From Candidatus Nanosynbacter lyticus (GTDB lineage Bacteria; Patescibacteriota; Saccharimonadia; Saccharimonadales; Saccharimonadaceae): a DNA stretch of 32,000 nucleotides. The stretch is from contig NZ_CP007496.1 of NCBI RefSeq assembly GCF_000803625.1, forward strand, positions 450,001 to 482,000, given 5' to 3'. Within the stretch, counting starts at the first letter, position 1. Every line of letters starts with the position of its first letter. The notes beneath the pieces are model-generated. The model searched no databases and was not told the origin of the DNA. It saw only the letters and a list, made by a program, of their open reading frames with translations. Positions 5,680-27,930 of this stretch are shown here, piece after piece. The position numbers were made by a program, and so were the translations under genes.

Positions 5680-6641
5680 TATAGTTCCCTTTCTTGAATT
5701 GGCATAGTATGAAGTGGTGTACCAGAATATAAAATACCAGCTTTCGCCCCAATTTTCATGACAACCGAGCTAGCATTTGCACTACCCATTATTACAGAAT
5801 TTTTCAAATTACCGCTCCTCGCCCATTCACTCAAAAAACCAGACGCAAAGGCATCACCAGCGCCCGTTCTGTCAATTGAAGGGCTGTCGTCGTACATTAA
5901 GGCTCGCACAATAGTCTTTCCGTCACTTGCCATGGAACCATTTACGCCGTCCGTCACTAGAACAACTGGTACCAAATTTAATCCACGGCGCACCAAAGTC
6001 TCCAAATCGTCGCCGGACACCAATTGTTGCATTTCCTCTTTATTAAGCGTCAAGACGTCAACATCAGACAAAAGTCCCAGCAATTTATCCTTTTGTGCCA
6101 ATTCTTTCTTGCCAGGATTAAAACAAATTTTCATATCGCGACGTTTGGCCTGGTGAAATAATTTATGAAGCATCGGCATATTACCGGCCAGCGTCGAAAC
6201 ATACAACCAGTCTGCATCTTCATCAGATAAATCAAAGTCCGCCTCGTGATAATGAGTTGAGGCTCCGCGGTATGTTAGAATTGTCCTTTCGCCATTTGAA
6301 GCCAGGAGCAAGACAGAGTATCCCGTGCTGTACTTTGGGGAATATCGTACTAAATGCGTATCAATATTTTCCTTATCCAAATCAGCCAAAACAGCCTGAC
6401 CAGCTGGATCATGACCGATCGCTCCCATAAAGCTAACATAATGACCCTGCCTGGCGAAAGTTACCGCTGCATTTGTAGCGCCACCACCGGTCGCAAAGTG
6501 GATTTGATTAACGTCGGCCTTTGCACCCAAATCCAGTCGCGCAAAACAATGCTCTGGACTTTCACACACTGGCGTTAATGCGTCCGATTGACTCAAAAAA
6601 ACGTCCTGGATAGCGGCACCGACGGTAATAATTTTTGCCAT
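5679..6641 (-). CDS. PfkB-family carbohydrate kinase (ribokinase/phosphofructokinase-B superfamily)
   Basis: The 320-aa ORF has motifs GGGATNAAV and DRTGAGDAFASGF. Its start overlaps the fba stop. Confidence 0.88.
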   Translation of the reverse strand: MAKIITVGAAIQDVFLSQSDALTPVCESPEHCFARLDLGAKADVNQIHFATGGGATNAAVTFARQGHYVSFMGAIGHDPAGQAVLADLDKENIDTHLVRYSPKYSTGYSVLLLASNGERTILTYRGASTHYHEADFDLSDEDADWLYVSTLAGNMPMLHKLFHQAKRRDMKICFNPGKKELAQKDKLLGLLSDVDVLTLNKEEMQQLVSGDDLETLVRRGLNLVPVVLVTDGVNGSMASDGKTIVRALMYDDSPSIDRTGAGDAFASGFLSEWARSGNLKNSVIMGSANASSVVMKIGAKAGILYSGTPLHTMPIQEREL

Positions 6642-7552
6642 TACACCACCGCCTTTCCTGCGGAATTAAACGCCTTAATCTTTGACTCTACAACTTCTTG
6701 GACAGCCGCGTAGACTGGAGGCATCAGCTTAACGATGGCATATTCATGTGGATTTTCACGCAAGGTTTTTTCCAGTGTGGTGCGGAAAGCGTAGCGCATA
6801 TCGGAGTTGATGTTGATTTTGGAAACGCCAATTTTTGCCGCATCTTCAAAGTAGTGCAGCGGCGTACCTGACCCACCATGAAGCGAAATCTGGCAGTACA
6901 GCGCCTGGCGAATGCGTGCTAATAATTCCAAATCTAACACTTTCGGTACTGGATATTTACCGTGCAGGTTACCCACTGCCGCCGCAAAGGTATCAATCCC
7001 CGTCGCCTCGACAAATGCCCGCGCACCGTCTGGCGTGGAAAAAGTTTTCTTGATTTCTTCATAGTCAATGGCTTCGGTATGAACATTAGAGCTGCCACCA
7101 AAATAGTGTGGCTCGGACTCTACCAAGGCGCCAGTAAACTTGGCGTACTCGACGACCTCGCGGGTTTTAGCGATGATTTCCTCGTCGGAAGCATCGTGAT
7201 TTGCCTGGGAAATGTCGATGTGCACAAACTCATACCCCGCGTCAATGGCTCGTTTACAGCCCTCGACTGTCGGACCGTGATCCAAGTTCAAATACATCTC
7301 GATGTCATATTCAGCCTTGTAGTTATCCACCAAGTCACGGACGTTCTCCAAGCCCATGGCTTTCACTTCGGCGTCTGACACCTCGACCAACACCGGAGAC
7401 TGGAGTTTTTGCGCCGCACGTGCCACGGCTATTAGCGTTTCTTGGTTGTCAATATTAAACGCCCCGACCGCAAAATGCTGCGCCCGTGTCCGCTGCATCA
7501 AATGACGCGCTCGCGTCGTGTTTTGCCGAATCTCTGAAATCGATAGTCCCAT
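6641..7552 (-). CDS. fba: Class II ketose-bisphosphate aldolase (fructose-1,6-bisphosphate aldolase family)
   Basis: The 303-aa ORF carries FNIDNQETL, LNLDHG, HIDIS and SLHGGSG, typical of class II FBA/tagatose-bisphosphate aldolases. It has an AGGGGGG SD. Confidence 0.88.
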   Translation of the reverse strand: MGLSISEIRQNTTRARHLMQRTRAQHFAVGAFNIDNQETLIAVARAAQKLQSPVLVEVSDAEVKAMGLENVRDLVDNYKAEYDIEMYLNLDHGPTVEGCKRAIDAGYEFVHIDISQANHDASDEEIIAKTREVVEYAKFTGALVESEPHYFGGSSNVHTEAIDYEEIKKTFSTPDGARAFVEATGIDTFAAAVGNLHGKYPVPKVLDLELLARIRQALYCQISLHGGSGTPLHYFEDAAKIGVSKININSDMRYAFRTTLEKTLRENPHEYAIVKLMPPVYAAVQEVVESKIKAFNSAGKAVV

Positions 7553-7578
7553 ACTGCCCCCCTAAAATACTTATGCTA

Positions 7579-7607
7579 ATTATATCAGTTAGCGAGCGCT
7601 GTGCCAA
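7579..7607 (-). promoter_or_regulatory. Putative promoter of the fba operon
   Basis: The minus strand reads TTGGCA-17nt-TATAAT, about 27 nt upstream of the fba ATG. Confidence 0.55.
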
Positions 7608-7638
7608 GATACTTTGAATATTTCCAAAATAGCATATA

Positions 7639-7667
7639 TTGATTTTTAATGGAATATACGGTATATT
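7639..7667 (+). promoter_or_regulatory. Putative promoter of small-ORF cassette A
   Basis: The sequence reads TTGATT-17nt-TATATT. It is divergent from the fba promoter. Confidence 0.5.
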
Positions 7668-7676
7668 ACATGTCAG

Positions 7677-7745
7677 CTTTTGCTCAAGGCCTGTCTAAGG
7701 GCAAAAGAGCCCTTTAACCTTGAGTGCTCACCGAAAGGAGGGGCG
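7677..7745 (+). promoter_or_regulatory. Structured 5' leader, copy A of a repeated leader motif (candidate cis-regulatory RNA)
   Basis: About two-thirds of positions match 11081-11155. It has nested stems CTCAAGG/CCTTGAG and AAGGGC/GCCCTT, then a hairpin CTCACC-GAAA-GGAGGG that contains the SD. Confidence 0.55.
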
Positions 7746-7991
7746 ATGAGCCCTGTCGTGAAGATAGCCAAACTCGCATTTAACGGGTTTATCGTATTTG
7801 TCCTAGCAGCATGCATAGCATGGTGGGCGATTGTCGGCGGGCTGTCTGAGGCCTACGGGCCGATCGCAGGACTAACGTTCGCGTTTGTAAGCATAGCAAC
7901 TCCCGTACTTATCTACGGGATGAAACGTCACAACCACCACGAAGGGTACTACCCCGAGTGCGACTGCAACTGTTGCCGCGAACGCAAGTGA
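7746..7991 (+). CDS. Small (81 aa) two-TM membrane protein with Cys/His-rich C-terminal tail
   Basis: ATG 7746 is preceded by AAAGGAGGGG. There are two hydrophobic helices and the tail HNHHEGYYPECDCNCCRERK. The 22 upstream codons of the tracked ORF are the leader. Confidence 0.65.
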   Translation: MSPVVKIAKLAFNGFIVFVLAACIAWWAIVGGLSEAYGPIAGLTFAFVSIATPVLIYGMKRHNHHEGYYPECDCNCCRERK

Positions 7992-7996
7992 CGCAC

Positions 7997-8061
7997 ACCC
8001 GTCAGGACTACTGCTTTGAGGTCTTTAATTAGATCTTGGTAGTAGCTCCTGGCGGGTTTTT
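7997..8061 (+). terminator. Rho-independent terminator of cassette A
   Basis: A long imperfect hairpin pairs ACCCGTCAGGACTACT with AGTAGcTCCTGGCGGGT (16 bp, one bulge, one G-T pair). It is followed by TTTTT. Confidence 0.65.
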
Positions 8062-9023
8062 CACTGGAGAAAATCAACAACACTGTGAGTAATTGAATCA
8101 ACGTCCAAGCCATGCTTTTTCCATAATTCAGACATTTTGCCCGACTCTCCAAACGTGTCATTGACACCAATTCGCTTCATCTTCACCGGCAAATTCTCAC
8201 TAAGAACTTCCGCCACGCTCGAACCAAATCCGCCAGTAATCTGCCCCTCTTCCGCCGTAATAACAGCTTGACATTTTTGAGCCGCGTTAAGTACGGCCTC
8301 TTCATCCAATGGTTTAATTGTCGGGAAATGAATGACCTCCGCCTGAATATCATATTCTTTCGCCAATTTTTCTGCCGCTAATAACAGTTGATATGTCATC
8401 ACGCCCGTTCCCAATAGCGCGACATCTTTACCTCGCCTCAGTACATAACTTTTTCCGATCTCAAAAGTAGATTGATTTAAGAACAACGGCGTTTTTTCCC
8501 GAGGCAATCTCACGTAATTCGGGCGCTTATCGCCAGCCATTGCGCCCGCCATCAGCCTGGCTTCATTAGCATCGCCTGGCGCCAACACCACCATGTTTGG
8601 CAAACTGCGCATCAAAGCAATATCTTCCAACATCTGATGCGTCGCACCGTCCGCGCCAACGTTCAACCCAGCATGCGAGCCAACCAACTTGACTGGCTGA
8701 TTATTCAAACAAATAGTCGTCCGAATCTGTTCCCAATTCCGCCCCGGACTAAACGCCGCGTAACTGGCTGCAAATGGAATATTACCCATGGCAGCTAACC
8801 CAGACGCCACTGTCACCAAATTCTGCTCCGCCACACCAACTTCAATCGCCCTAGGACTACCAATTTCCTTAGCAAATTCACCAAAGCCGACGCTTTCCAT
8901 CAAATCCGCACTCAGCGCCACCACTAGATTATTCTTCTTAGCGACGTCTGTTAATCCTTCGCCAAAACCAATGCGAATAGCTGCAGTCTCTGATTGCCGC
9001 CAATCTTCTCTCAGAAAACTCAC
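8061..9023 (-). CDS. Transketolase, C-terminal (pyrimidine-binding) subunit
   Basis: The 320-aa ORF has EVGVAEQNLVTVASGLA and a GTG start overlapping the upstream stop (GTGA). This is a split transketolase. Confidence 0.92.
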   Translation of the reverse strand: MSFLREDWRQSETAAIRIGFGEGLTDVAKKNNLVVALSADLMESVGFGEFAKEIGSPRAIEVGVAEQNLVTVASGLAAMGNIPFAASYAAFSPGRNWEQIRTTICLNNQPVKLVGSHAGLNVGADGATHQMLEDIALMRSLPNMVVLAPGDANEARLMAGAMAGDKRPNYVRLPREKTPLFLNQSTFEIGKSYVLRRGKDVALLGTGVMTYQLLLAAEKLAKEYDIQAEVIHFPTIKPLDEEAVLNAAQKCQAVITAEEGQITGGFGSSVAEVLSENLPVKMKRIGVNDTFGESGKMSELWKKHGLDVDSITHSVVDFLQ

Positions 9024-9859
9024 TTGACATCTCCTTTTTCACCTAGCTGAATAAGCGCACGCCTGGCCTCCTCGGCATTCGGGGCTCTTCCGTGCCACTG
9101 GTAATCATATTCCATAAAATCAACACCAAATCCAGGAATTGTATGTGCAATGATCACATTCGGCTGATGGGAAGTTTTTGCCACGTCAATCGCTTTTACA
9201 ATTGCCTCGTAATCATGTCCGTCGACTTCCTGCGTAAACCAGCCAAAACTCCGCCACTTGTCCGCCAAATTTCCTAGCGGCATAACTTTTTCCGTATCGC
9301 CACCAATCTGAATATTATTCCTATCAATAATCGCAATTATATTTGACAACTCATATTTCGCGGCAAACATCGCCGCCTCCCAAATATTACCCTCATTAAG
9401 CTCGCCATCGCCCAAACTACAATAAACGAACCGCTGGGGATTACCACCTAAATATTTCAATGAATAAGCCATACCGGCCGCTTGACTTAAGCCGCAACCC
9501 AAAGGACCGCTCGTCGTTTCAATACCAGGCAGGCTACCACGTTCTGGATGACCCTGAAGTTTAGAGCCAAATTTCCTTAAATTAACTAATTCTTTTTTAT
9601 CAAAAAACCCTCGCTCCGCCAAAGTGGCGTACAGAAGCGGCGCATAATGGCCGTTACTCATCACAAAAATATCTCGATCTTGCCAATCAGGATTTTCAGG
9701 ATCTAGACGCATGGCGTAAAAATAAAGAACCGCCATGACATCCGCAAAACCCAGACATCCAGCCGCATGTCCAGAGCCAGCTGTCACTAATTCATGAATA
9801 ATCGACTGACGCAAGGTTTGGGATATTTCTCTCAATTCGTTTAGTTGATCGTCAGACAT
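9020..9859 (-). CDS. Transketolase, N-terminal (thiamine diphosphate-binding) subunit
   Basis: The 279-aa ORF has the GDGELNEGNIWEA TPP-binding motif and SGHAAGCLG. Confidence 0.92.
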   Translation of the reverse strand: MSDDQLNELREISQTLRQSIIHELVTAGSGHAAGCLGFADVMAVLYFYAMRLDPENPDWQDRDIFVMSNGHYAPLLYATLAERGFFDKKELVNLRKFGSKLQGHPERGSLPGIETTSGPLGCGLSQAAGMAYSLKYLGGNPQRFVYCSLGDGELNEGNIWEAAMFAAKYELSNIIAIIDRNNIQIGGDTEKVMPLGNLADKWRSFGWFTQEVDGHDYEAIVKAIDVAKTSHQPNVIIAHTIPGFGVDFMEYDYQWHGRAPNAEEARRALIQLGEKGDVK

Positions 9860-10506
9860 TAAAGCACACTCGTCTTGTTAATTTCCTGCTGGAGTTTGGA
9901 AAAAATTGCGTGTGGATCTGATGATTTTTGAATAACGCCGCCAGCATTTAAGACATTAACACCACCCTGCACCAGGCTATATGCATTATCCACTAAAACG
10001 CCGCCATCCCAACCAATTTCCACGTTAGGATTAATGGCTTTAATGAGTCGAATTTTTTCCAACTGCATCAAACTGGCAGTCCCGCCAAATCTACCCAACT
10101 CGCCACTAAAAATCATCACATGGTCAGCGAGTTTTATAAATTCTTCGACAGTCCGCGGCACCGTTGGCTTTAATAACGCTAGGCCAGCCATGATACCAGC
10201 CTGACGAATCTGCATAAGCGCCATTTTTACATCGCCCGTGGCTTCCGCGTGGACTATAATCATATGTGGTCTTAGGGCAATCAACTTCGGTATATATTCC
10301 TCCAGATTGTTGACCATAGCATGAATATCGATAGTCCAACCCTCGGGTGCCCATAATTCCTGAATACCGACCGTCAACGTCGGCGCAAATTCACCATCAG
10401 AAATATCAATATGTACCCGCTCAACAAAACCAGTTATCCTATCAACTTGCTCTTTATACTGAGCAGCGTTTTCTGCCAAAATAGCCGGGGCAATTACAGC
10501 GCTCAT
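9859..10506 (-). CDS. rpe: Ribulose-phosphate 3-epimerase (divergent)
   Basis: The 215-aa ORF is colinear with Rpe landmarks: IAPAILAEN, HIDISDGEFAPTLTVG, DIHAMV, VHAEA, GWDGGV. Confidence 0.75.
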   Translation of the reverse strand: MSAVIAPAILAENAAQYKEQVDRITGFVERVHIDISDGEFAPTLTVGIQELWAPEGWTIDIHAMVNNLEEYIPKLIALRPHMIIVHAEATGDVKMALMQIRQAGIMAGLALLKPTVPRTVEEFIKLADHVMIFSGELGRFGGTASLMQLEKIRLIKAINPNVEIGWDGGVLVDNAYSLVQGGVNVLNAGGVIQKSSDPHAIFSKLQQEINKTSVL

Positions 10507-10955
10507 GACAATTCATCCAACTGCGCATTGCGCCGATTAAAGCGTGGAGCATTGGCGTACGGAGTATTCAACCACGTTTCTACAATACCCTTCCAAGCTG
10601 ATTCATCGTCTTCCAAAATTCGCGCCGGCAAACACAATACATTCGAGTCATTATCATGACGCGTCATCTTTGCCTCGAAAGCATCCCAAATCACGCTGGC
10701 ACGAATTCCTTTGAATCGGTTGGCCGCCATACACATTCCTTGACCGCCGCCACAGATTAAGATAGCTCGCGGATCTTTACTATCATCGCCAATAATTTTC
10801 AATACTGCCGCCTGAGCGAATTGCGGAAAATCATCGTCAGGGTTTAATTCTACGCCACCAACATCTTGTACGTCATAGCCATTTTTAACCAAATACGCAA
10901 AAACTTTTTCCTTCAACATAAAGCCGCGGTGGTCAGATCCGAGGTAGATTTTCAT
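10503..10955 (-). CDS. rpiB: Ribose-5-phosphate isomerase B
   Basis: The protein reads MKIYLGSDHRGFMLKE...CGGGQGMCMAANR. I moved the start to ATG 10955 (M24 of the tracked ORF), which gives the usual length of about 150 aa. Confidence 0.9.
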   Translation of the reverse strand: MKIYLGSDHRGFMLKEKVFAYLVKNGYDVQDVGGVELNPDDDFPQFAQAAVLKIIGDDSKDPRAILICGGGQGMCMAANRFKGIRASVIWDAFEAKMTRHDNDSNVLCLPARILEDDESAWKGIVETWLNTPYANAPRFNRRNAQLDELS

Positions 10956-10961
10956 GATTTT

Positions 10962-10990
10962 AGTATAAGCGTTTTCGGTGATTTTTGCAA
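10962..10990 (-). promoter_or_regulatory. Putative promoter of the rpiB-rpe-tkt operon, leaderless arrangement
   Basis: The minus strand reads TTGCAA-17nt-TATACT-AAAATC-ATG, with no SD. Confidence 0.55.
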
Positions 10991-11043
10991 GAGAAAGTCG
11001 GAGATTACTCCAGGGGTGAAGCATGCCTATTTGACAAAAAGTA

Positions 11044-11072
11044 TTGACATTTTATAACTGGTATGATATAAA
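11044..11072 (+). promoter_or_regulatory. Putative promoter of small-ORF cassette B
   Basis: The sequence reads TTGACA-17nt-TATAAA, with TG at the extended -10 position. Confidence 0.55.
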
Positions 11073-11080
11073 TAGATTAA

Positions 11081-11155
11081 CTTTTGTTCAAAGTTTTGTC
11101 TTAGGGCGGAAGTCGCCCTTTAGCTTTGAGTATCTTCCTGAAAGGAAGTGAAGAG
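11081..11155 (+). promoter_or_regulatory. Structured 5' leader, copy B of the repeated leader motif
   Basis: It has the same nested stems as copy A (TTCAAAG/CTTTGAG and AGGGCG/CGCCCT). An SD-sequestering hairpin CTTCC-TGAAA-GGAAG follows. Confidence 0.55.
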
Positions 11156-11395
11156 ATGAAGGTAAAGTTCACTCTCAGCAATGGCCAGTCATTCGCCACG
11201 AAAATCACATACGGCTTCAAGGACACTAGGGATCTAGTAGAAAATCTGTCTAGAATGCTAGGAGAAGCCACAGACAAATCTGTCGTGGAACTCGAAACAG
11301 AAGACGGGATGTTTCTTGGTCAGGCCGACCGACATTGTGTCGGTCGAAATCCGGAGCTAAAGTGTCTCGCGCCAGCAGAAGGCGCGCTAAGATAA
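11156..11395 (+). CDS. Small (79 aa) hydrophilic hypothetical protein
   Basis: ATG 11156 lies 7 nt after GGAAG. The unit has its own promoter and terminator. The protein shows no similarity to the cassette A protein and belongs to no family I recognise. Confidence 0.6.
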   Translation: MKVKFTLSNGQSFATKITYGFKDTRDLVENLSRMLGEATDKSVVELETEDGMFLGQADRHCVGRNPELKCLAPAEGALR

Positions 11396-11427
11396 ATATT
11401 CTGTAAAACCGCCGGAAATACCGACGT

Positions 11428-11463
11428 CCCCGCACTATCACAGTGCGGGGTTATTCCTTTTCT
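11428..11463 (+). terminator. Rho-independent terminator of cassette B
   Basis: The hairpin is CCCCGCACT-atcac-AGTGCGGGG, followed by TTATTCCTTTTCT. Confidence 0.7.
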
Positions 11464-11478
11464 GGATTCTGGAGCAAA

Positions 11479-12501
11479 CTATTCGCTCTGGTTGAGATAA
11501 TGTCCGACATCCGCCACCAGTTCAACCAGCCGGTTCGAATAACCCCATTCATTGTCATACCAAACCATGACTTTGATCAAATTACCACCAACAACCTTCG
11601 TCAGCGGCAAGTCAACAACCCCAGAGTGCGAATTGCCGATGAAGTCGCGGCTAACTAAAGGTTCCTCAGAAACGCCCAGAATACCCTGGTAAAAGTTACT
11701 TTGCGCGGCTTTTTTGAAGGCTTCATTTACCTGCTCAACCGTTACATCGCGTCGGAGCAGTACCGTCACATCACTGAGCGACACCACTGGCGTTGGGACA
11801 CGAACACTGAGACCATCGAATCTACCAGTCAACTGCGGCAGGGTTTTCGTCACAGCAATGGCTGCACCCGTTGTTGTTGGCACCATATTCTCAGCAGCAT
11901 TACGACCTTCACGTAAATCCTTGGATGGCGCGTCTTGCAATCTTTGGCTAGCGGTGTAGCTATGCACTGTCGTCAACATTGATTTTTCCACGCCAAACTC
12001 TGCGTCCAGAACCGCCATCACCGCGCCCAGACTGTTGGTGGTACAGCTGGCGTTAGATACAATTGGCGTTGCGTCCTTGATTTTACTATCATTAGTACCT
12101 AGCACAATCGTATCAACGCCGTCAGACTTGGTTGGACCGCTGATAACCACGCGCTTGGCACCGGCAGTCAAGTGCTTACCTGCGCCGTCTTTATCAGTGA
12201 AGAATCCGGTAGATTCAATCACCACGTCAATATTCATATCGCCCCACGGCAAGTTTGCTGGATCTTTCTCTGCTAGGACTTTAACGGATTGACCTTCAAT
12301 AATCAGCTCATTTTCCGTAAAATCAACCTGCCGACTATACTCACCATAATTGCTGTCATGCTTGAGCAGGTACGCCAGAGTCTTCGTGTCCGTCAAATCA
12401 TTAATCGCCACAATCTCTAAATCACTCCGCTCGCGAGCAATCTTAAAAGCGTTACGCCCAATCCTTCCAAAACCATTAATTGCTATTCTTGTTACTGACA
12501 T
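11479..12501 (-). CDS. gap: Type I glyceraldehyde-3-phosphate dehydrogenase
   Basis: The 340-aa ORF has NGFGRIGR, the SNASCTTN active site and WYDNEWGYS. It has a GGGGAGGG SD. Confidence 0.96.
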   Translation of the reverse strand: MSVTRIAINGFGRIGRNAFKIARERSDLEIVAINDLTDTKTLAYLLKHDSNYGEYSRQVDFTENELIIEGQSVKVLAEKDPANLPWGDMNIDVVIESTGFFTDKDGAGKHLTAGAKRVVISGPTKSDGVDTIVLGTNDSKIKDATPIVSNASCTTNSLGAVMAVLDAEFGVEKSMLTTVHSYTASQRLQDAPSKDLREGRNAAENMVPTTTGAAIAVTKTLPQLTGRFDGLSVRVPTPVVSLSDVTVLLRRDVTVEQVNEAFKKAAQSNFYQGILGVSEEPLVSRDFIGNSHSGVVDLPLTKVVGGNLIKVMVWYDNEWGYSNRLVELVADVGHYLNQSE

Positions 12502-15724: not shown

Positions 15725-16394
15725 TTAACCCCCTTGACCTATAATACTGCTTGATAATTCCTGGCATTTCTGGCTGTGGAATATCTGCTGGCTTTTCGAT
15801 AGCCATTACCACAAATTTCAGCGGCGAATTAGCAGGAATCTTATCGCCCTGAGCCTGATTTCCGTACGCCTTATCCGCTGGAATTGTCAATTCGCGTACA
15901 CCGCCAATCTTCATACCAATCAGCCCCTCTTTCCAGCCTTGAATCACGGCAGTTTTCGCTGGACCATTCATATTAAGCGGTGCTTTTAACTTTCCATCAG
16001 CAATTGATTGATCAAAAATCTCCCCCTTAGGGTTCCAGCCAATATAATAAACCGCCAATTTAGTATCATCTTTGACTTCTGCTCCGTCACCCTCCAACAA
16101 ATCTTCTTTGCCGAGTTCTTTAACACTACCAGCCTCAAACGCACCGACTCGCGAACTGAACTCAGAAAATTTACTGTAGTATTTTTGGCTCAGTTCGGCA
16201 GCCTGAGCTTCTACTTTTTTCTTATGCTCATCGTTGGCTTTAGTGTACTCATCCTGAGCCTTCTTCAATGCCGCTTGATCTTTAGCATCATTGCCCGGCT
16301 GCACCATCATGGCGATAAATCCGCCAACAGTTCCTAAAAACATCATGCCGGCAATCACCCAAATGCCTATCCTTTGGCTTTTACTTGTTGCCAT
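15717..16394 (-). CDS. FKBP-type peptidyl-prolyl cis-trans isomerase, N-terminally membrane-anchored
   Basis: The 225-aa ORF has an N-terminal TM helix. Its C-terminal FKBP domain carries VYYIGW...GWKEGLIGMKIGGVRELTIPADKAYG. It has an AAGGAGG SD. Confidence 0.88.
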   Translation of the reverse strand: MATSKSQRIGIWVIAGMMFLGTVGGFIAMMVQPGNDAKDQAALKKAQDEYTKANDEHKKKVEAQAAELSQKYYSKFSEFSSRVGAFEAGSVKELGKEDLLEGDGAEVKDDTKLAVYYIGWNPKGEIFDQSIADGKLKAPLNMNGPAKTAVIQGWKEGLIGMKIGGVRELTIPADKAYGNQAQGDKIPANSPLKFVVMAIEKPADIPQPEMPGIIKQYYRSRGLNV

Positions 16395-23520: not shown

Positions 23521-25854
23521 CTACTAACTCTAGAAAACGGTTATCATCATCTTAATATAGAGGCTATGAAGAGATTTTTTTAACTCTCCGATATAAATTA
23601 ATCAATTCATTGATATCCATATCAACAAGAGGTTCATACATAAAAGCATTAAGGTGTATATTTTCTGGGGTCATAATATTTACCTCATCAATCACTTTCA
23701 CAGTATCGTTACTGCACTTAGTCTGTTTAAATGCATCAGAGAGGCTCCTCGTTTGATTTTTCTGAGCCTCCAATTGATCAAGAAATTCTTGTGAAGAGCC
23801 GCTTTCTGACCCTTCACGACCCCAAGATATTTGACCGCTATATTCTTTTAACTTACGCTTCATATATTCTTCCGCTCTATGTCTAATTGCAATAGCCAGA
23901 ATGATTTTATATTCAAGTAAGGATTTTTCGATGGTTATTGTTTCAGCTTCTGTGTAAATTGCGTCGACTATTGGAGTGTCTGTATTGATATTTATAAAAT
24001 CACTCCTACCTAAGTGTCTCTCGTAGATGTCTTTAAGTGACTGAAATGTTATGTCAGATGTTTCTTCTTTATTATGTAACAATTTAGTTAACTCACCGTA
24101 ATCTGCATCGTCTTTCCCTTTAGTATATTCAATTAGATTGCGCACTGCGGGAATAAGCGCAATTACATGAGCGAGCGTCATATTGTCCTTCCAGTGGTCA
24201 ATTGGATTTCTCTGATAAAATTCTTTTCTCAATATAACCTCGCCATTGTTCAGCTCTGCGTGCAAATGAGCGTATCTAGGTAAGCCAAGTCGACTAGTAA
24301 TCGTTCTATAGAAATCAAAATTATGCGACAAGATAATGAGCTTAAAATTTTTGCAATTTGCCATTTCATATAAATATTCAACAATTGCATACTTATTTTT
24401 ATAGTCAAAAGAATCAGCAATATCATCAACTACTAGTAAAACTTCTTTGTCTGTTCCTGCTAAATCTTTCTTCATTTTCTCAATATCAAAAATAATATTT
24501 AGCAGATATAAGGATCTCTTCTCTCCTTGGCTTAGAGTGTCCTTGATTTCAAGCTCTCCTCTACTGATAGTTTGCTGCCGACCATCTCTAGTAAATACAA
24601 ACTCTACCTGTGGAATATTCTCACCCATAATAGCACTTGTTCCGTTGGCAATTTTCATTTTATACGGCACCGTAAATCGTTCTTCAAAAATTCTTAGCGC
24701 TTCTCCCCAGCGTGTCTTTTCTGGATCTATGCCACCAATCTCATGCCGAAGACTATTCCACTTATCTTTAAGGTTGCTAAACGTGGTATTATCTTTCATA
24801 TAAGATAGCCATAATTGCCTACGTAGATCTTTAAGCTTAGACTCCTTTAGATACTGCACTACATCAGGGTTATTCTCTATAACTCTTCTTAGTACACCAC
24901 CTTTAGCTGTTTTCAAATCTTTCTCTATATCAGTAAAGGCCTTGCTTTGCTTAATCTCTTGTTCAATTCCCTTTACTACATCACTAAAATCTTCAGTTGT
25001 ACGTATTTCTTCCTCGCCAAAAAGTTTTACAAGATTATCGTTTACGAAAAATCCATTATCTTTCAGTGATTTCTCGACATTTTTAAGTTCAGACAGACTA
25101 AAAATACCCTTCTTTAAAAAACCATGTCGTTCATAAATCTCATTACTAGTTTTACAGAATTCTTCAATATTTTCTTGAAACCCTTTTTTCTTAATATATC
25201 CCAGTGTAGTATTATCAAAAATATCCGAATATTTAATTTCCGAAAAATCAATTCCTATACGTCCCTGTATAAGTTCCAACCCCAGTAAGATACTGCCATC
25301 CAGATCAAAATCTTTTACGATCTTTGGCTCTAGCTCACGTACATTCACGCCTTGTATAACTTTTTTAATTTTAAGACCAGAAGCTTTTTCTAAATCTTTC
25401 AATAAGTCGCTTTTTAGCTTGATAACATCTGATATCTTTTCCTTTATAGATTCATCTACCAATAGATCGGCAAGATTACCTGACTGATAAGAGGCCTCAA
25501 AGCTTTTTATCACGAAAACATCTTCTTCTGAAATATCTTTTCCATCGATGGTTATTTTTGCTTCTCCTGGGATATCAAAAATCTCATCTCTAATTTCTTT
25601 TTGCTTTTTATCTTGTATCTTTTTGAAAGTCTTAGCAAATGATGTTTTCATTAAGCCATTTTTCGCATAAATGGCAATTACACTAGTGTCAGAGAAAGTA
25701 AATTCACTTTCCAACTTTTGAATCCCGTAGCAATTAACTAAATCACATTTTATTTTTTCCATTTTATCCCCTCATTTTATATCTTACTTCACTTTCTTGT
25801 TTTCTTTAATAAGATTCGTGGGGCAAGCCATATTTTCTTTTCCAAACTACTAAC
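23521..25854. other. AT-rich compositional island carrying a single gene
   Basis: Hand counts of 60-nt lines give 18/60 G+C at 24421-24480. The flanking genes give 36/60 at 22141-22200 and 32/60 at 26101-26160. The boundaries are approximate. Confidence 0.6.
23564..25762 (-). CDS. ABC/SMC-like ATPase of RloC/PrrC (AAA_13)-like architecture, putative stand-alone defence/abortive-infection protein
   Basis: The 732-aa ORF has a GAGGGG SD and a P-loop-like YAKNGLMKTS (aa 32-41). A K/E-rich helical insertion of about 250 aa follows. It also has the signature LSQGEK (aa 410-415), Walker B VLLVVDDIADSFD (aa 441-453), LSHN (aa 478-481) and a C-terminal domain of about 235 aa. Confidence 0.9.
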   Translation of the reverse strand: MEKIKCDLVNCYGIQKLESEFTFSDTSVIAIYAKNGLMKTSFAKTFKKIQDKKQKEIRDEIFDIPGEAKITIDGKDISEEDVFVIKSFEASYQSGNLADLLVDESIKEKISDVIKLKSDLLKDLEKASGLKIKKVIQGVNVRELEPKIVKDFDLDGSILLGLELIQGRIGIDFSEIKYSDIFDNTTLGYIKKKGFQENIEEFCKTSNEIYERHGFLKKGIFSLSELKNVEKSLKDNGFFVNDNLVKLFGEEEIRTTEDFSDVVKGIEQEIKQSKAFTDIEKDLKTAKGGVLRRVIENNPDVVQYLKESKLKDLRRQLWLSYMKDNTTFSNLKDKWNSLRHEIGGIDPEKTRWGEALRIFEERFTVPYKMKIANGTSAIMGENIPQVEFVFTRDGRQQTISRGELEIKDTLSQGEKRSLYLLNIIFDIEKMKKDLAGTDKEVLLVVDDIADSFDYKNKYAIVEYLYEMANCKNFKLIILSHNFDFYRTITSRLGLPRYAHLHAELNNGEVILRKEFYQRNPIDHWKDNMTLAHVIALIPAVRNLIEYTKGKDDADYGELTKLLHNKEETSDITFQSLKDIYERHLGRSDFININTDTPIVDAIYTEAETITIEKSLLEYKIILAIAIRHRAEEYMKRKLKEYSGQISWGREGSESGSSQEFLDQLEAQKNQTRSLSDAFKQTKCSNDTVKVIDEVNIMTPENIHLNAFMYEPLVDMDINELINLYRRVKKISS

Positions 25855-25910: not shown

Positions 25911-27293
25911 TTAATTAAACCTCACCACAAACCGCATGCCCCGCCCATGCAGTGTGAAATCATAGTCCAGACCCTTGGCGTCGAGTAGCATTTTCACGAT
26001 GTAGAGGCCGATACCACTGCTGTCGGCATGTTGCTTCGCACCATTGCTCCGATAAAACGGATCAAAGATGTGCTGAAGTTGCTGTTTGGTGAGCGGTTTG
26101 CAAGCGTTTTCGATGGCCAGCTCATGCTGGTCGCATGTAATTTTTATCACGCTCCCCGCGTCGCCGTGGCGCACCGCGTTTGATACCAGGTTCGAGATGA
26201 CGTGGCGCATCATGTCGCGGTTGGCACGAATGGTCGTTGGTTCTGTATTAACCTCGAAAGTCATGCCGCACGTTTTTGCCAGCAACACATAATCGTCAAC
26301 TACCTCAGTGACCAGCTTGTCAATCCCCAGCCGCTTTTCCTGACGCAAAGCCTGCTCGGCGACACTGCCAGAACGCAAAACATCATTCACCATCGCCGCC
26401 AAGCGGTCAACCTGTGCCACTGATTCCGCCAGGTACTGATCGCGATTTTTATACTCGCCGATGTTGAGTTGCATGTTTTCCAGCATAATCCTGAGGGCCG
26501 CTAACGGCGTTTTCAACTCGTGCGAGGCCGCGCGGAGGAAGGCGATTTTTTCTTTCTCCAGCTGCGTGATCCGCTTATTTTCATACTCCAGCGAACGAAT
26601 TGTTTGCCATAGATTTTGATAGAGCTCATTAATATTTCGCCCCAGCACGCCAATCTCGTCATGACTATTCACTGGGTAATGCGCGTTCTTTTCCAGCCGC
26701 TGCATGGTCGTGGTCACCGCCGCCATCTGGCGAATCGGCCGCGTCACAAAACGGCTATAAACGTAAGAAAACAGCAGTGCCACCAGCAGCGAACCGAGCA
26801 TGGTATATGGCAATACGTGCAAGGTAGCGAGCTTGGCCTGAGTGACAGGCACCACGTCGGCGAGTAGCTTGACCGTAATCGTTTGGCCTTGGTTGTTCGC
26901 CACACTCCCCTGCCGCAAAATCACCGAGCGCGGATCGACAGTCTGCCCGTCAGCAATTTTCACCACACTGGTGTCAACCGATTTACCACTATCGGTCACG
27001 ATGTTGATCGACTGAAAACCTTGAAAATACTGATTACGTCCGTCAATTGTCAGCGTGATATTAACATTTTTCATCTGAGCAAACTCCTGGCTGAGACGGC
27101 GCATTTCCTCAGTCGATTTACCGCGTAGTTCAGCCACGAGCGCCGTGAGATTGTCCGCCGCCTCGTGCTCTTTTTGCTGCAAATAAAATTGCGGCATCAA
27201 GGTGTAGACCAGCGCATGCACCAGGATGATCAACGCCGCAAACAGGCCGATTGACACCAAAAATGTTTTGGGAAATAACTTAAGCCGCTTCAT
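25911..27293 (-). CDS. Sensor histidine kinase (two TM helices, periplasmic-type sensor domain, HAMP, HisKA, HATPase_c)
   Basis: The 460-aa ORF has the H-box SHELKTPL, the N-box LVSNAVRHG and the G-box SSGIGLYIV. Confidence 0.93.
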   Translation of the reverse strand: MKRLKLFPKTFLVSIGLFAALIILVHALVYTLMPQFYLQQKEHEAADNLTALVAELRGKSTEEMRRLSQEFAQMKNVNITLTIDGRNQYFQGFQSINIVTDSGKSVDTSVVKIADGQTVDPRSVILRQGSVANNQGQTITVKLLADVVPVTQAKLATLHVLPYTMLGSLLVALLFSYVYSRFVTRPIRQMAAVTTTMQRLEKNAHYPVNSHDEIGVLGRNINELYQNLWQTIRSLEYENKRITQLEKEKIAFLRAASHELKTPLAALRIMLENMQLNIGEYKNRDQYLAESVAQVDRLAAMVNDVLRSGSVAEQALRQEKRLGIDKLVTEVVDDYVLLAKTCGMTFEVNTEPTTIRANRDMMRHVISNLVSNAVRHGDAGSVIKITCDQHELAIENACKPLTKQQLQHIFDPFYRSNGAKQHADSSGIGLYIVKMLLDAKGLDYDFTLHGRGMRFVVRFN

Positions 27294-27930
27294 AGCGATA
27301 ACCCACTCCCTTCACCGTGATGATGCAGTCCAGGTGCAATTTTTTGCGCAAGTTTTTGATGTAAACGTCAATCACCCGGTCGAACGGCACCTCGTCATCA
27401 CACCACAACTTGTCAATGATAGCCTGCCGACTCCAGACCATGTTTGGGTTATCGACGAGTAGCTTGAGCAGCTGCACTTCCTTGGGCTTGAGATGTGCGT
27501 CAGCATCATCATAAAATCCCTGATACGCCGCGAAATCCACCGAGGCCAGACCGCGCTGCCACAAGGTCTTTTTGACAGACTGTTGGCGGCGAAGCAAGGC
27601 CCTAATTCGCTTCTCCAAAATCACCAGCGAAAACGGCTTACTCATATAATCATCCGCCAGCTCGTCAAAACTCGCAACTTGCGTCGGCTCATCATGCAAT
27701 GCCGTCAGCATCAGTACCGGCACGTCGCTGGTCTGGCGAATTTGGTGCAGCGTCTCGATACCACTCATCCCTGGTAGCATAATGTCGAGAATAATCACAT
27801 CTGCCCCAGTAGATTTCTCCAGTGCTTCCTCGCCACTGGTCGCTGTCACCACCGTAAAACCGCGCTGGCGGAGGAACTGCTCGGTGCCAGTGCGAACTGC
27901 CGGTTCGTCTTCAACAAGGAGGATGTTCAC
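27280..27930 (-). CDS. OmpR/PhoB-family response regulator
   Basis: The receiver domain has LLVEDEP, ILDIMLPGMSG and SKPF. A winged-helix C-terminus (VKGVGYRY) follows. The GTG start overlaps the hydrolase stop (GTGA). Confidence 0.93.
   Translation of the reverse strand: MNILLVEDEPAVRTGTEQFLRQRGFTVVTATSGEEALEKSTGADVIILDIMLPGMSGIETLHQIRQTSDVPVLMLTALHDEPTQVASFDELADDYMSKPFSLVILEKRIRALLRRQQSVKKTLWQRGLASVDFAAYQGFYDDADAHLKPKEVQLLKLLVDNPNMVWSRQAIIDKLWCDDEVPFDRVIDVYIKNLRKKLHLDCIITVKGVGYRYEAA

Follow-up and report, generated by a model that had tools for sequence, protein, structure and literature searches.

A putative family of cis-acting 5' leaders upstream of small-protein genes in oral Saccharibacteria

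Two predicted small transcription units in the window

The window, which is the whole stretch of DNA analysed here, comprises 32,000 nucleotides (nt) of the genome of Candidatus Nanosynbacter lyticus (contig NZ_CP007496.1, positions 450,001 to 482,000 of the forward strand). It holds two copies of a structured 5' leader, leader A (7677-7745) and leader B (11081-11155), each followed on the plus strand by a small open reading frame (ORF). A preliminary description of the window had presented both as copies of one nested hairpin, and all of its coordinates and base pairs for the two copies were correct when the sequence was read again. Aligned together with their promoters, the A and B regions are identical in 77% of columns, and a degenerate pattern of the leader core gave two matches in the window, A and B, against 0.01 expected from shuffled sequences. 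Each leader begins 0-2 nt past the start site predicted for a near-consensus promoter, with the word CTTTTG approximately 7-9 nt downstream of that promoter. Judged by this anatomy, A and B would each represent a complete small transcription unit of promoter, leader, ORF, and terminator.

The promoter of cassette A (7639-7667) consists of a -35 box TTGATT (7639-7644), a 17-nt spacer, and a -10 box TATATT (7662-7667), and transcription is predicted to start at approximately 7674-7676. The leader opens with the pyrimidine tail CUUUUG (7677-7682), which is single-stranded in the predicted folds, and continues into the nested hairpin at 7682-7725 (62.9 bits with the covariance model introduced below). 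The outer stem P1 pairs 7682-7689 with 7718-7725, as supported by the predicted fold and by covariation in the family, while the inner stem P2 pairs AAGGGC at 7697-7702 with GCCCUU at 7709-7714. Between the two stems lies the 5' side of the internal loop, UGUCU (7692-7696), and P2 is closed by the apical loop AAAAGA (7703-7708). A third predicted hairpin, P3, occupies 7726-7744 and carries the extended Shine-Dalgarno sequence GAAAGGAGG (7733-7741) in its loop and 3' arm. ORF A follows with ATG at 7746 (7746-7991) and encodes 81 amino acids (aa) with two predicted membrane helices, a tail rich in Cys, His, and Arg, and no Pfam family. The cassette closes with a long imperfect terminator hairpin and a U-tract (7998-8061), which is kept at site A in orthologous loci; outside site A, the crude terminator scan that was run over all cassettes is unreliable.

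Cassette B follows the same plan, starting with a promoter at 11044-11072 that has a -35 box TTGACA (11044-11049), a 17-nt spacer, TGa, and a -10 box TATAAA (11067-11072). In the predicted fold, the tail CUUUUG (11081-11086) precedes the nested hairpin at 11087-11130 (78.7 bits), in which P1 pairs 11087-11095 with 11122-11130 and includes U-G pairs, UGUCU lies at 11097-11101, and P2 pairs 11103-11108 with 11114-11119 below the apical loop GAAGU. Hairpin P3 (11134-11148) pairs CUUCCU with AGGAAG around the Shine-Dalgarno region GAAAGGAAG (11140-11148). ORF B starts with ATG at 11156 (11156-11395) and its 79 aa are identical (100%) to TM7x_02450, a hypothetical protein of the oral Saccharibacterium Candidatus Nanosynbacter lyticus TM7x; compared with the soluble 67-aa protein of its family, it represents a frameshifted allele. 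The intrinsic terminator at 11428-11460 has a GC-rich stem of 9 base pairs (bp) followed by a U-rich tail with an interrupted U-tract.

As a separate observation, the terminator hairpin at 7998-8061 and the 3' untranslated regions (UTRs) of sites A and C in related loci contain CTTTGAGG or GGCTTGAGCC. In sequence, both words correspond to the 3' strand of P1, and pairing with the P1 5' strand of the leader would be possible, a 5'-3' interaction as in some toxin messenger RNAs (mRNAs); the words are absent after ORF B.

The claims made earlier on the core of the leader largely stand. The outer stem of copy A pairs CTCAAGG (7683-7689) with CCTTGAG (7718-7724), that of copy B pairs TTCAAAG (11087-11093) with CTTTGAG (11124-11130), and the pair G7688:C7719 in A corresponds to A11092:T11125 in B, a double compensatory change. 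The inner stem GGGC/GCCC is common to both copies, and the minimum free energy and centroid structures agree on the same nested fold in A and in B. The two downstream ORFs, said to be unrelated, have neither similarity to each other nor a Pfam match. While the core was described properly, its extent was drawn too short: the element is longer and adds a conserved promoter, the 5' pyrimidine tail, and the third, Shine-Dalgarno-containing hairpin. The internal-loop word TGTCT, described as conserved, is present in A and B but varies in family members that were retrieved without TGTCT in the query. Folding z-scores of the single sequences are modest (-1.7 to -2.0), so that the case rests on comparison and not on folding energy.

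A coding explanation for the leader was considered and dropped. Long ORFs with TTG starts (7680-7991 and 11126-11395) would turn the leader into coding sequence, but family members differ by insertions and deletions of 1-2 nt in the junction and loop, and leader substitutions track base pairing and not codons. Phage origin was likewise rejected, as a distant blastn search of 7400-8100 against 50,697 phage records gave no match.

Both copies lie in a block of housekeeping genes on the minus strand, namely a class II aldolase (6641-7552), a PfkB kinase, a split transketolase (8061-9859), a ribulose-phosphate epimerase, RpiB (10503-11024), and GAPDH (11479-12501). The only two gaps in this block are the positions of copies A and B, and each copy is directed away from its upstream operon. 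Promoter-like sites on the minus strand were also seen in these gaps. One at 7579-7607 (TTGGCA-17-TGnTATAAT, 11 of 12 matches) lies upstream of the aldolase gene. The -35 box of the other, at 11063-11091 (TTGAAC-17-TATCAT), is the reverse complement of the P1 start of leader B, so that this rpiB promoter-like site overlaps back to back with the sequence of leader B.

Distribution and covariation of the leader

Relatives of the leader were retrieved with sequence patterns and then with a covariance model. The pattern scan of 185,579 species genomes yielded 45 loci, 33 of them in Saccharibacteria (Nanosynbacter, 'Minimicrobia', and metagenome-assembled genomes); the remaining 12 matches, in other phyla, are without the 5' strand of P1 and look like chance. 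A complementary pattern applied to metagenomes added 33 loci, and eight orthologous metagenomic contigs (L001-L008) were retrieved through homologues of ORF B. The covariance model was built from 42 distinct cores and covers P1 and P2 only. In the window it found only A and B, and no further copy, the next-best match reaching 12.5 bits (E=0.13, with E-values that are rough owing to the shortened calibration of the model). This third-best match of the model, at 16178-16209 on the plus strand, falls inside the FKBP and PheT genes or close to them and is probably due to chance.

The model identified 89 copies across 69 sources, and 62 of these are distinct; they come from genomes and metagenomes of oral Saccharibacteria. 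Sense-strand scores ranged from 44 to 86 bits, compared with at most 16 bits on the antisense strand. Thirteen copies found by the model matched neither pattern and are free of pattern bias. By clustering of flanking genes, the copies fall at seven or more sites. One pattern match was obtained in the complete 'Minimicrobia vallesae' genome, where the model added a second copy in the 8 kb examined. Conservation of a structured leader at the RNA level, proposed earlier from two copies, is therefore borne out by these further copies together with the covariation and the G-U excess reported next, and the case in which neither more copies nor covariation would be found did not arise.

P1 comprises 8-10 bp and is 99.4% paired in the model-based alignment of the 62 distinct members. 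Pair 18:57 is AU in 29, GC in 21, and GU in 12 members, and pair 16:59 is AU in 44, GU in 16, and GC in 2. Pairs 19:56 and 12:63 have also changed on both sides, which brings compensatory change to four of eight pairs. Two measures, the covariation score and the count of doubly changed cells, were higher than in all 500 column shuffles and at least twofold those of any slid register. A MAFFT alignment gave the same picture of P1 covariation, and RNAalifold independently predicted P2 as well as P1, the latter with an added two-pair extension. The same substitutions can be followed at site A, where the relatives L001-L008 replace CTCAAGG/CCTTGAG with CTCAAAG/CTTTGAG, retain the pair CTCGAGAC/GTCTTGAG via G-U, and retain AAGGGT/GCCCTT via U-G. 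Among the cells of P1 that are not Watson-Crick pairs, 60 are G-U and 3 are others, and P1 of copy B cannot form on the minus strand. A DNA palindrome would gain G-T and A-C mismatches equally; since P1 has an excess of G-U and the minus strand of copy B fails to form it, the leader acts as an RNA read from the plus strand.

P2 (5-6 bp) is nearly invariant, and its support comes from conservation and from U-G wobbles. Its apical loop always contains AAG. The 3' half, GCCCUUU(A/G)GCUUUGAG, is the most conserved segment of the leader, although it is partly fixed by the search patterns. The 5' tail of 6-8 nt has the consensus C-Y-Y-Y-Y-R, with C6 invariant and U7 present in 61 of 62 distinct members. 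The 5' side of the internal loop varies among members found by the model alone (UGCCU, UUUCCU, UGUUU), and it is deleted in L011:5584 and L013:1123; these two copies still have the promoter along with P1, P2, and P3 and precede an ORF that is intact.

Complementarity exists between the tail (CUUUU) and the apical loop (RRAAG), and 97% of cells can pair, with 6:44 being C-G in 62 of 62 and 7:43 being U-A in 61 of 62 members. The changes are one-sided (U:A, U:G, C:G), and 4 C.A cells occur at 8:42. A tail-loop pseudoknot was considered as a defining feature and rejected in that role, and we take it as no more than possible: the complementarity is real, but compensatory support is absent, and the connecting loop of 1-2 nt would be strained on steric grounds. 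A further point against it is that folding back would be impossible in members lacking the internal loop. Folds of A and B gave no evident alternative pairing that links P1 or P2 to P3.

Among orthologues at site A, mean identity is 86% in the core, 60% in P3, and 65% in the first 150 nt of the ORF. Over 38 sequences, one representative per distinct ORF N-terminus, the core reaches 88% and the ORF 57%. On these comparisons the constraint on the leader is much stronger than on neutral sites, because core identity is high while synonymous divergence of the ORFs amounts to 0.6-1.4 per site; the core figure is somewhat inflated by pattern bias.

P1 is followed within 0-4 nt by P3. Most of the 71 distinct instances form this hairpin from the stretch that separates P1 from the start codon; the Shine-Dalgarno sequence is in its 3' arm and loop, and stabilities are approximately -2 to -12 kcal/mol. 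While the arms differ between members (UCACC/GGUGA, UUCUUC/GAAGAA, CUCUC/GAGAG, UUCC/GGAA), the 5' arm is an anti-Shine-Dalgarno sequence that covaries with the purines flanking the extended Shine-Dalgarno GA(A/G)AGGAG. Controls were 94 ordinary genes with a canonical Shine-Dalgarno in the same loci. Compared with them, the stretch before the start codon is more stable (mean -6.1 versus -2.95 kcal/mol, p=1e-7) and the Shine-Dalgarno core is more often paired (p=4e-5). In the promoters, the spacer is 17 nt in 69 of 71 instances, TTGACA is perfect in 54, and a TGn extended -10 is present in 64. The distance from the -10 box to the C of the tail is 6-8 nt in 61 of the 71 distinct instances, and from this fixed distance we infer that the RNA should begin 0-2 nt before CUUUUG. 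Counted from a start site that is only predicted, the free 5' tail before P1 amounts to approximately 6-8 nt.

Small genes behind the leader

A small ORF of 38-95 aa follows every copy that was examined downstream, namely 71 pattern-derived and 12 of 13 model-only copies. The script called no ORF for the thirteenth (L020:6463), where the downstream sequence opens with a frame of cluster 2, the ORF B family. The ORFs fall into at least 15 clusters that are unrelated by BLAST, and none of the families has a Pfam match. Approximately 11 of 15 clusters carry one or two strongly hydrophobic helices. Four clusters are soluble (2, 5, 8, and 13): two are acidic or helical, one is the ORF B family, and one is a family with four Cys. 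In the ORF A family (25 distinct gene sequences), the median ratio of nonsynonymous to synonymous divergence (dN/dS) is 0.39 and lies below 1 in all 203 pairs, while it is 0.36 in the ORF B family and ranges over the families from 0.36 to 0.42, with dS of 0.6-1.4. These ratios indicate that the small ORFs are real genes under purifying selection.

The same site can hold different families. Site A (7552-8061 in the window) carries cluster 0, 1, 3, or 9 in different genomes and site B carries cluster 2, 1, or 5, and several genomes have no ORF B there. At the equivalent of window positions 11024-11479, the same promoter and leader can be followed by the ORF B family, which is soluble, by a membrane family with two helices, or by the four-Cys family. 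This suggests that the coding part is replaced in the manner of a cassette at the syntenic sites A and B; the conserved unit is thus the promoter with its leader, and the ORF is the exchangeable part.

The ORF B family (P0004-P0014) is tiny and restricted to Saccharibacteria, with nine matches at E<=0.001 among 1.8 billion cluster representatives, the weakest of them a doubtful 279-aa protein. TM7x_02450 has one extra T in the run at 11312-11314 compared with the metagenomic contig L079 and is otherwise identical to it across the gene. The resulting frameshift swaps the last 12 residues of the conserved 67-aa protein for 24 unrelated ones. It may be genuine, marking a pseudogenising or variant allele, or it may be an error made in sequencing a homopolymer of the reference genome. 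An AlphaFold2 model from 11 sequences (predicted local distance difference test 81, predicted template modelling score 0.65) has the order strand-strand-helix-strand-strand-strand. Its closest structure by Foldseek is the ring-forming Mycobacterium tuberculosis protein Rv3208A (7rur and 7rus), with template modelling (TM) scores of 0.76-0.78, root-mean-square deviations of 1.9-2.1 Å, and E=2e-3, whereas the resemblance to Hfq/Lsm is weaker (TM 0.45-0.5). According to the titles of the PDB entries, Rv3208A was crystallised as an octamer and a hexadecamer. At the level of sequence, no link to Rv3208A or Sm-like proteins appeared: there was no Pfam match at E up to 10 and none that was relevant in a PDB profile search.

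Two further features of the window were recorded apart from the leaders. The 732-aa ORF at 23564-25762 on the minus strand lies in a stretch of markedly low GC content (0.33-0.36 compared with approximately 0.48 elsewhere), and its sole Pfam match is a weak, sub-threshold SMC_N; possibly this is a coiled-coil or surface protein that evolves fast or was acquired horizontally. At 25911-27930, also on the minus strand, lies a pair of a histidine kinase (HAMP-HisKA-HATPase_c) and an OmpR-type response regulator, one of presumably few transcriptional regulators in the reduced genome.

Interpretation and significance

The explanation we favour, with somewhat more confidence for it than against, is that these elements constitute a new family of cis-acting 5' leaders that gate the translation or stability of small-protein genes through a trans-acting factor. 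Each copy would be the 5' untranslated leader of a self-contained cassette, with a sigma-70-type promoter, the leader, an ORF of 38-95 aa, and a terminator (present for both window copies). P3 would keep a very strong ribosome-binding site half closed and thereby gate initiation, and P1 would serve as a clamp that sets the single-stranded U-rich tail beside P3. Tail and invariant apical loop may together form the recognition surface for a putative factor, either an RNA-binding protein or a 30S/S1 'standby' complex, which would set the frequency of P3 opening and the lifetime of the mRNA. Shared by at least seven loci, the leader would co-regulate a set of small, mostly membrane, proteins in episymbionts with reduced genomes.

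Several points weigh against this explanation. The trans-acting factor is putative, and the start site, the leader status, and the regulation are predictions from sequence. Most sequences were retrieved by patterns that fix GGG/CCCTTT plus TGTCT or CTTTTG, so that the conservation of these words is inflated, and the case for P2, whose GGG/CCC was fixed in the same way, is one of conservation and U-G wobbles. The diversity sampled is shallow, consisting of oral Nanosynbacter-like lineages. A few members are without a convincing P3 (L013, L029). Copies per genome are apparently few, from two to a few, and 'regulon' may overstate the case. The free 5' tail of 6-8 nt also exceeds that of classical protective 5' hairpins.

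This last point bears at the same time on a possible, if clearly less probable, explanation, in which the cassette is an autonomous module for high expression or stability that has no dedicated regulator. The hairpin would slow decay that depends on the 5' end, the extended Shine-Dalgarno would be a strong attractor of ribosomes, P3 would only tune expression, and the sequence conservation would stem from cassette duplication and structural constraint. The near-consensus promoter with its extended -10, the stable 5'-proximal hairpin, and the 9-nt Shine-Dalgarno, which is presumably complementary to the 3' end of 16S RNA, are all consistent with such a module, and the loss of the internal loop leaves the cassette intact. 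However, the conservation of the C-U of the tail, the apical AAG, and the 3' UUU(A/G)G equals that of the stems while the ORFs and P3 of paralogues are near saturation, and a stabiliser that works by structure alone would have no need to retain these bases. Protection of 5' ends usually requires a free end of at most 4 nt, as in stabilisers of B. subtilis and E. coli, compared with the 6-8 nt predicted here. We prefer the factor-dependent leader over a structural stabiliser because unpaired positions are as conserved as the stems and the predicted tail is too long for classical 5' protection. If P1, P2, and the internal loop, possibly with the tail-loop pseudoknot, were instead the aptamer of a metabolite or ion riboswitch with P3 as its translational platform, a fold that is compact, conserved, and placed directly upstream of a Shine-Dalgarno-sequestering hairpin would be expected, and it is present together with a tail complementary to the apical loop in 97% of cells. 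Such a riboswitch is nevertheless unlikely, because the downstream genes are without a theme, the internal loop is dispensable, and the folds show no coupling of P1/P2 to P3. At least 15 unrelated small proteins lie downstream with no transporter or enzyme among them, the 5' side of the internal loop is variable and is absent in L011:5584 and L013:1123 with their ORFs intact, and no alternative pairing joins the two parts. Tail-loop pairing is one-sided, with C.A mismatches at 8:42 and a connecting loop of 1-2 nt, and no Rfam riboswitch matched. While the proposal of a candidate cis-regulatory RNA in the preliminary description is thus supported for a leader read from its sequence, 'riboswitch-like' is the least supported of the alternatives it named.

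The hydrophobic ORFs in approximately 11 of 15 families, the strong promoters, and the Shine-Dalgarno-sequestering hairpins also recall type I toxin-antitoxin systems, in which hydrophobic toxins would be silenced by Shine-Dalgarno sequestration and by an antitoxin RNA targeting the leader. Several copies per genome stand at conserved intergenic sites with variable peptides, and the terminators of sites A and C carry words like the 3' strand of P1 that are able to pair with the 5' region. Against this, four families are soluble (clusters 2, 5, 8, and 13), proteins of 45-95 aa with two helices exceed typical type I toxins, and the ORFs are under ordinary purifying selection. Neither window cassette showed an antisense (minus-strand) promoter-like site inside it or just downstream, and approximately 615 kb of related sequence held no separate locus complementary to the leader, all strong model matches being sense-oriented, although this is absence of evidence only; we regard a toxin-antitoxin leader as quite unlikely. 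An attenuator or a 5'-derived small RNA (sRNA) is very unlikely in our estimate. P2 with UUUAGCUUU would then act as a weak intrinsic terminator and release an RNA of approximately 45 nt or permit regulated read-through. The consensus scan flagged P2 of copy B as terminator-like (11103-11119), genuine terminators here also have interrupted U-tracts (11428-11460), and the GCCCUUU(A/G)GCUUUGAG half is the most conserved, though partly pattern-fixed. P2 of copy A was not flagged, however, its stem has only 5-6 bp, the supposed U-tract is the covarying 3' strand of P1 with no competing antiterminator pairing, and every copy examined downstream leads into a Shine-Dalgarno and then an ORF under selection. 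Least probable by far is an inverted-repeat operator at the DNA level, bound by a transcription factor for the divergent sugar-phosphate operons (aldolase-pfkB and rpiB-rpe-tkt) or for the small genes. Both window copies do stand in divergent intergenic regions beside central-carbon operons, and the minus-strand promoter-like site from 11091 to 11063 overlaps the start of leader B. The 60 G-T against at most 3 other mismatches are nevertheless the signature of pairing in RNA from one strand, the distance to the minus-strand genes differs (125 versus 57 nt), and at least five other sites have unrelated neighbours. Antisense scores stay at or below 16 bits, and in copy B the antisense strand cannot form P1.

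The factor-dependent leader shares features with several known systems. As in the standby-site leaders of E. coli tisB and the MS2 coat gene, for which the standby model is reportedly due to de Smit and van Duin, a strong Shine-Dalgarno lies in a hairpin, a 5' single-stranded segment is available to 30S/S1, and the product is small and often a membrane protein. Here, however, the single-stranded segment is the extreme 5' tail, placed next to the Shine-Dalgarno hairpin by a conserved nested hairpin; one leader is reused by at least 15 unrelated genes, and no IstR-like antisense regulator was found. With 5' stabilisers (the aprE leader and ermC of B. subtilis, the ompA 5' UTR of E. coli, and the STAB-SD of B. 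thuringiensis cry3A) the leader shares a stable hairpin near the 5' end, but the predicted free tail is 6-8 nt instead of at most 4 nt and unpaired nucleotides are conserved. GAAAGGAGG, which we take to match the cry3A STAB-SD, serves here as the functional Shine-Dalgarno next to the start codon instead of as a decoy at the 5' end. Type I toxin leaders (Fst/RNAI, AapA1/IsoA1, TisB, Zor/Orz) resemble it in their hydrophobic ORFs, strong promoters, upstream anti-Shine-Dalgarno occlusion, and multicopy intergenic cassettes; in the present family no antitoxin RNA is detectable, several families are soluble, and the proteins are longer. Small pseudoknot riboswitches (preQ1-II, SAM-II/V, guanidine-III) are similar in size (approximately 50 nt), in their position directly upstream of the Shine-Dalgarno, and in a possible loop-tail pairing, whereas the leader has no Rfam match and no coherent genes, and its putative pseudoknot is without covariation and sterically strained. 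In its sequence, the tail A/G-C-UUUU-G directly before a hairpin resembles the Hfq/Sm sites (A-U5-G by a stem-loop, PDB 1kq2). The predicted ORF B fold is weakly similar to Hfq/Lsm (TM of approximately 0.5), but its closest structure is Rv3208A (TM 0.76), a protein of unknown function.

The earlier statement that the leader belongs to no recognised class agrees with Rfam 15, which gave no match in the whole window at gathering thresholds and only chance-level matches in relaxed scans of A, B, and two related loci (e.g., L31-Firmicutes at 14 bits compared with a threshold of 33.3). Full-text searches of the literature found no such motif described in Saccharibacteria or Patescibacteria, and neither TM7x_02450 nor a neighbour for ORF A is listed in two TM7x transcriptome papers and one supplement. 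By its sequence and predicted fold the leader is best placed as a new RNA family within the structured 5' leaders with a Shine-Dalgarno-sequestering hairpin, and not as a metabolite riboswitch. To our knowledge, very few regulatory RNAs or regulons have been described in Saccharibacteria and other bacteria in the candidate phyla radiation (CPR)/Patescibacteria, which have few transcription factors.

One specific form of the factor-dependent leader can be put forward as a speculation that we hold to be improbable. In this Saccharibacteria-specific circuit, a ring-forming Sm-like protein of the ORF B family would bind the tail A/G-C-UUUU-G beside P1, autoregulate its own gene, and co-regulate the rapidly exchanging small membrane proteins at the interface between episymbiont and host. 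If it were true, it would amount to an Hfq-like regulon in an ultrasmall CPR bacterium, of which none is currently known there.

A promoter and leader shared by at least 15 uncharacterised families point to a co-ordinated programme of small proteins in a human oral episymbiont. The covariance model offers a handle on small genes that annotation pipelines often miss, and the leader is a natural strong part for expression and translation control in the emerging genetics of Saccharibacteria. Should a dedicated RNA-binding factor recognise the leader, it would define a new post-transcriptional regulon in a minimal genome.

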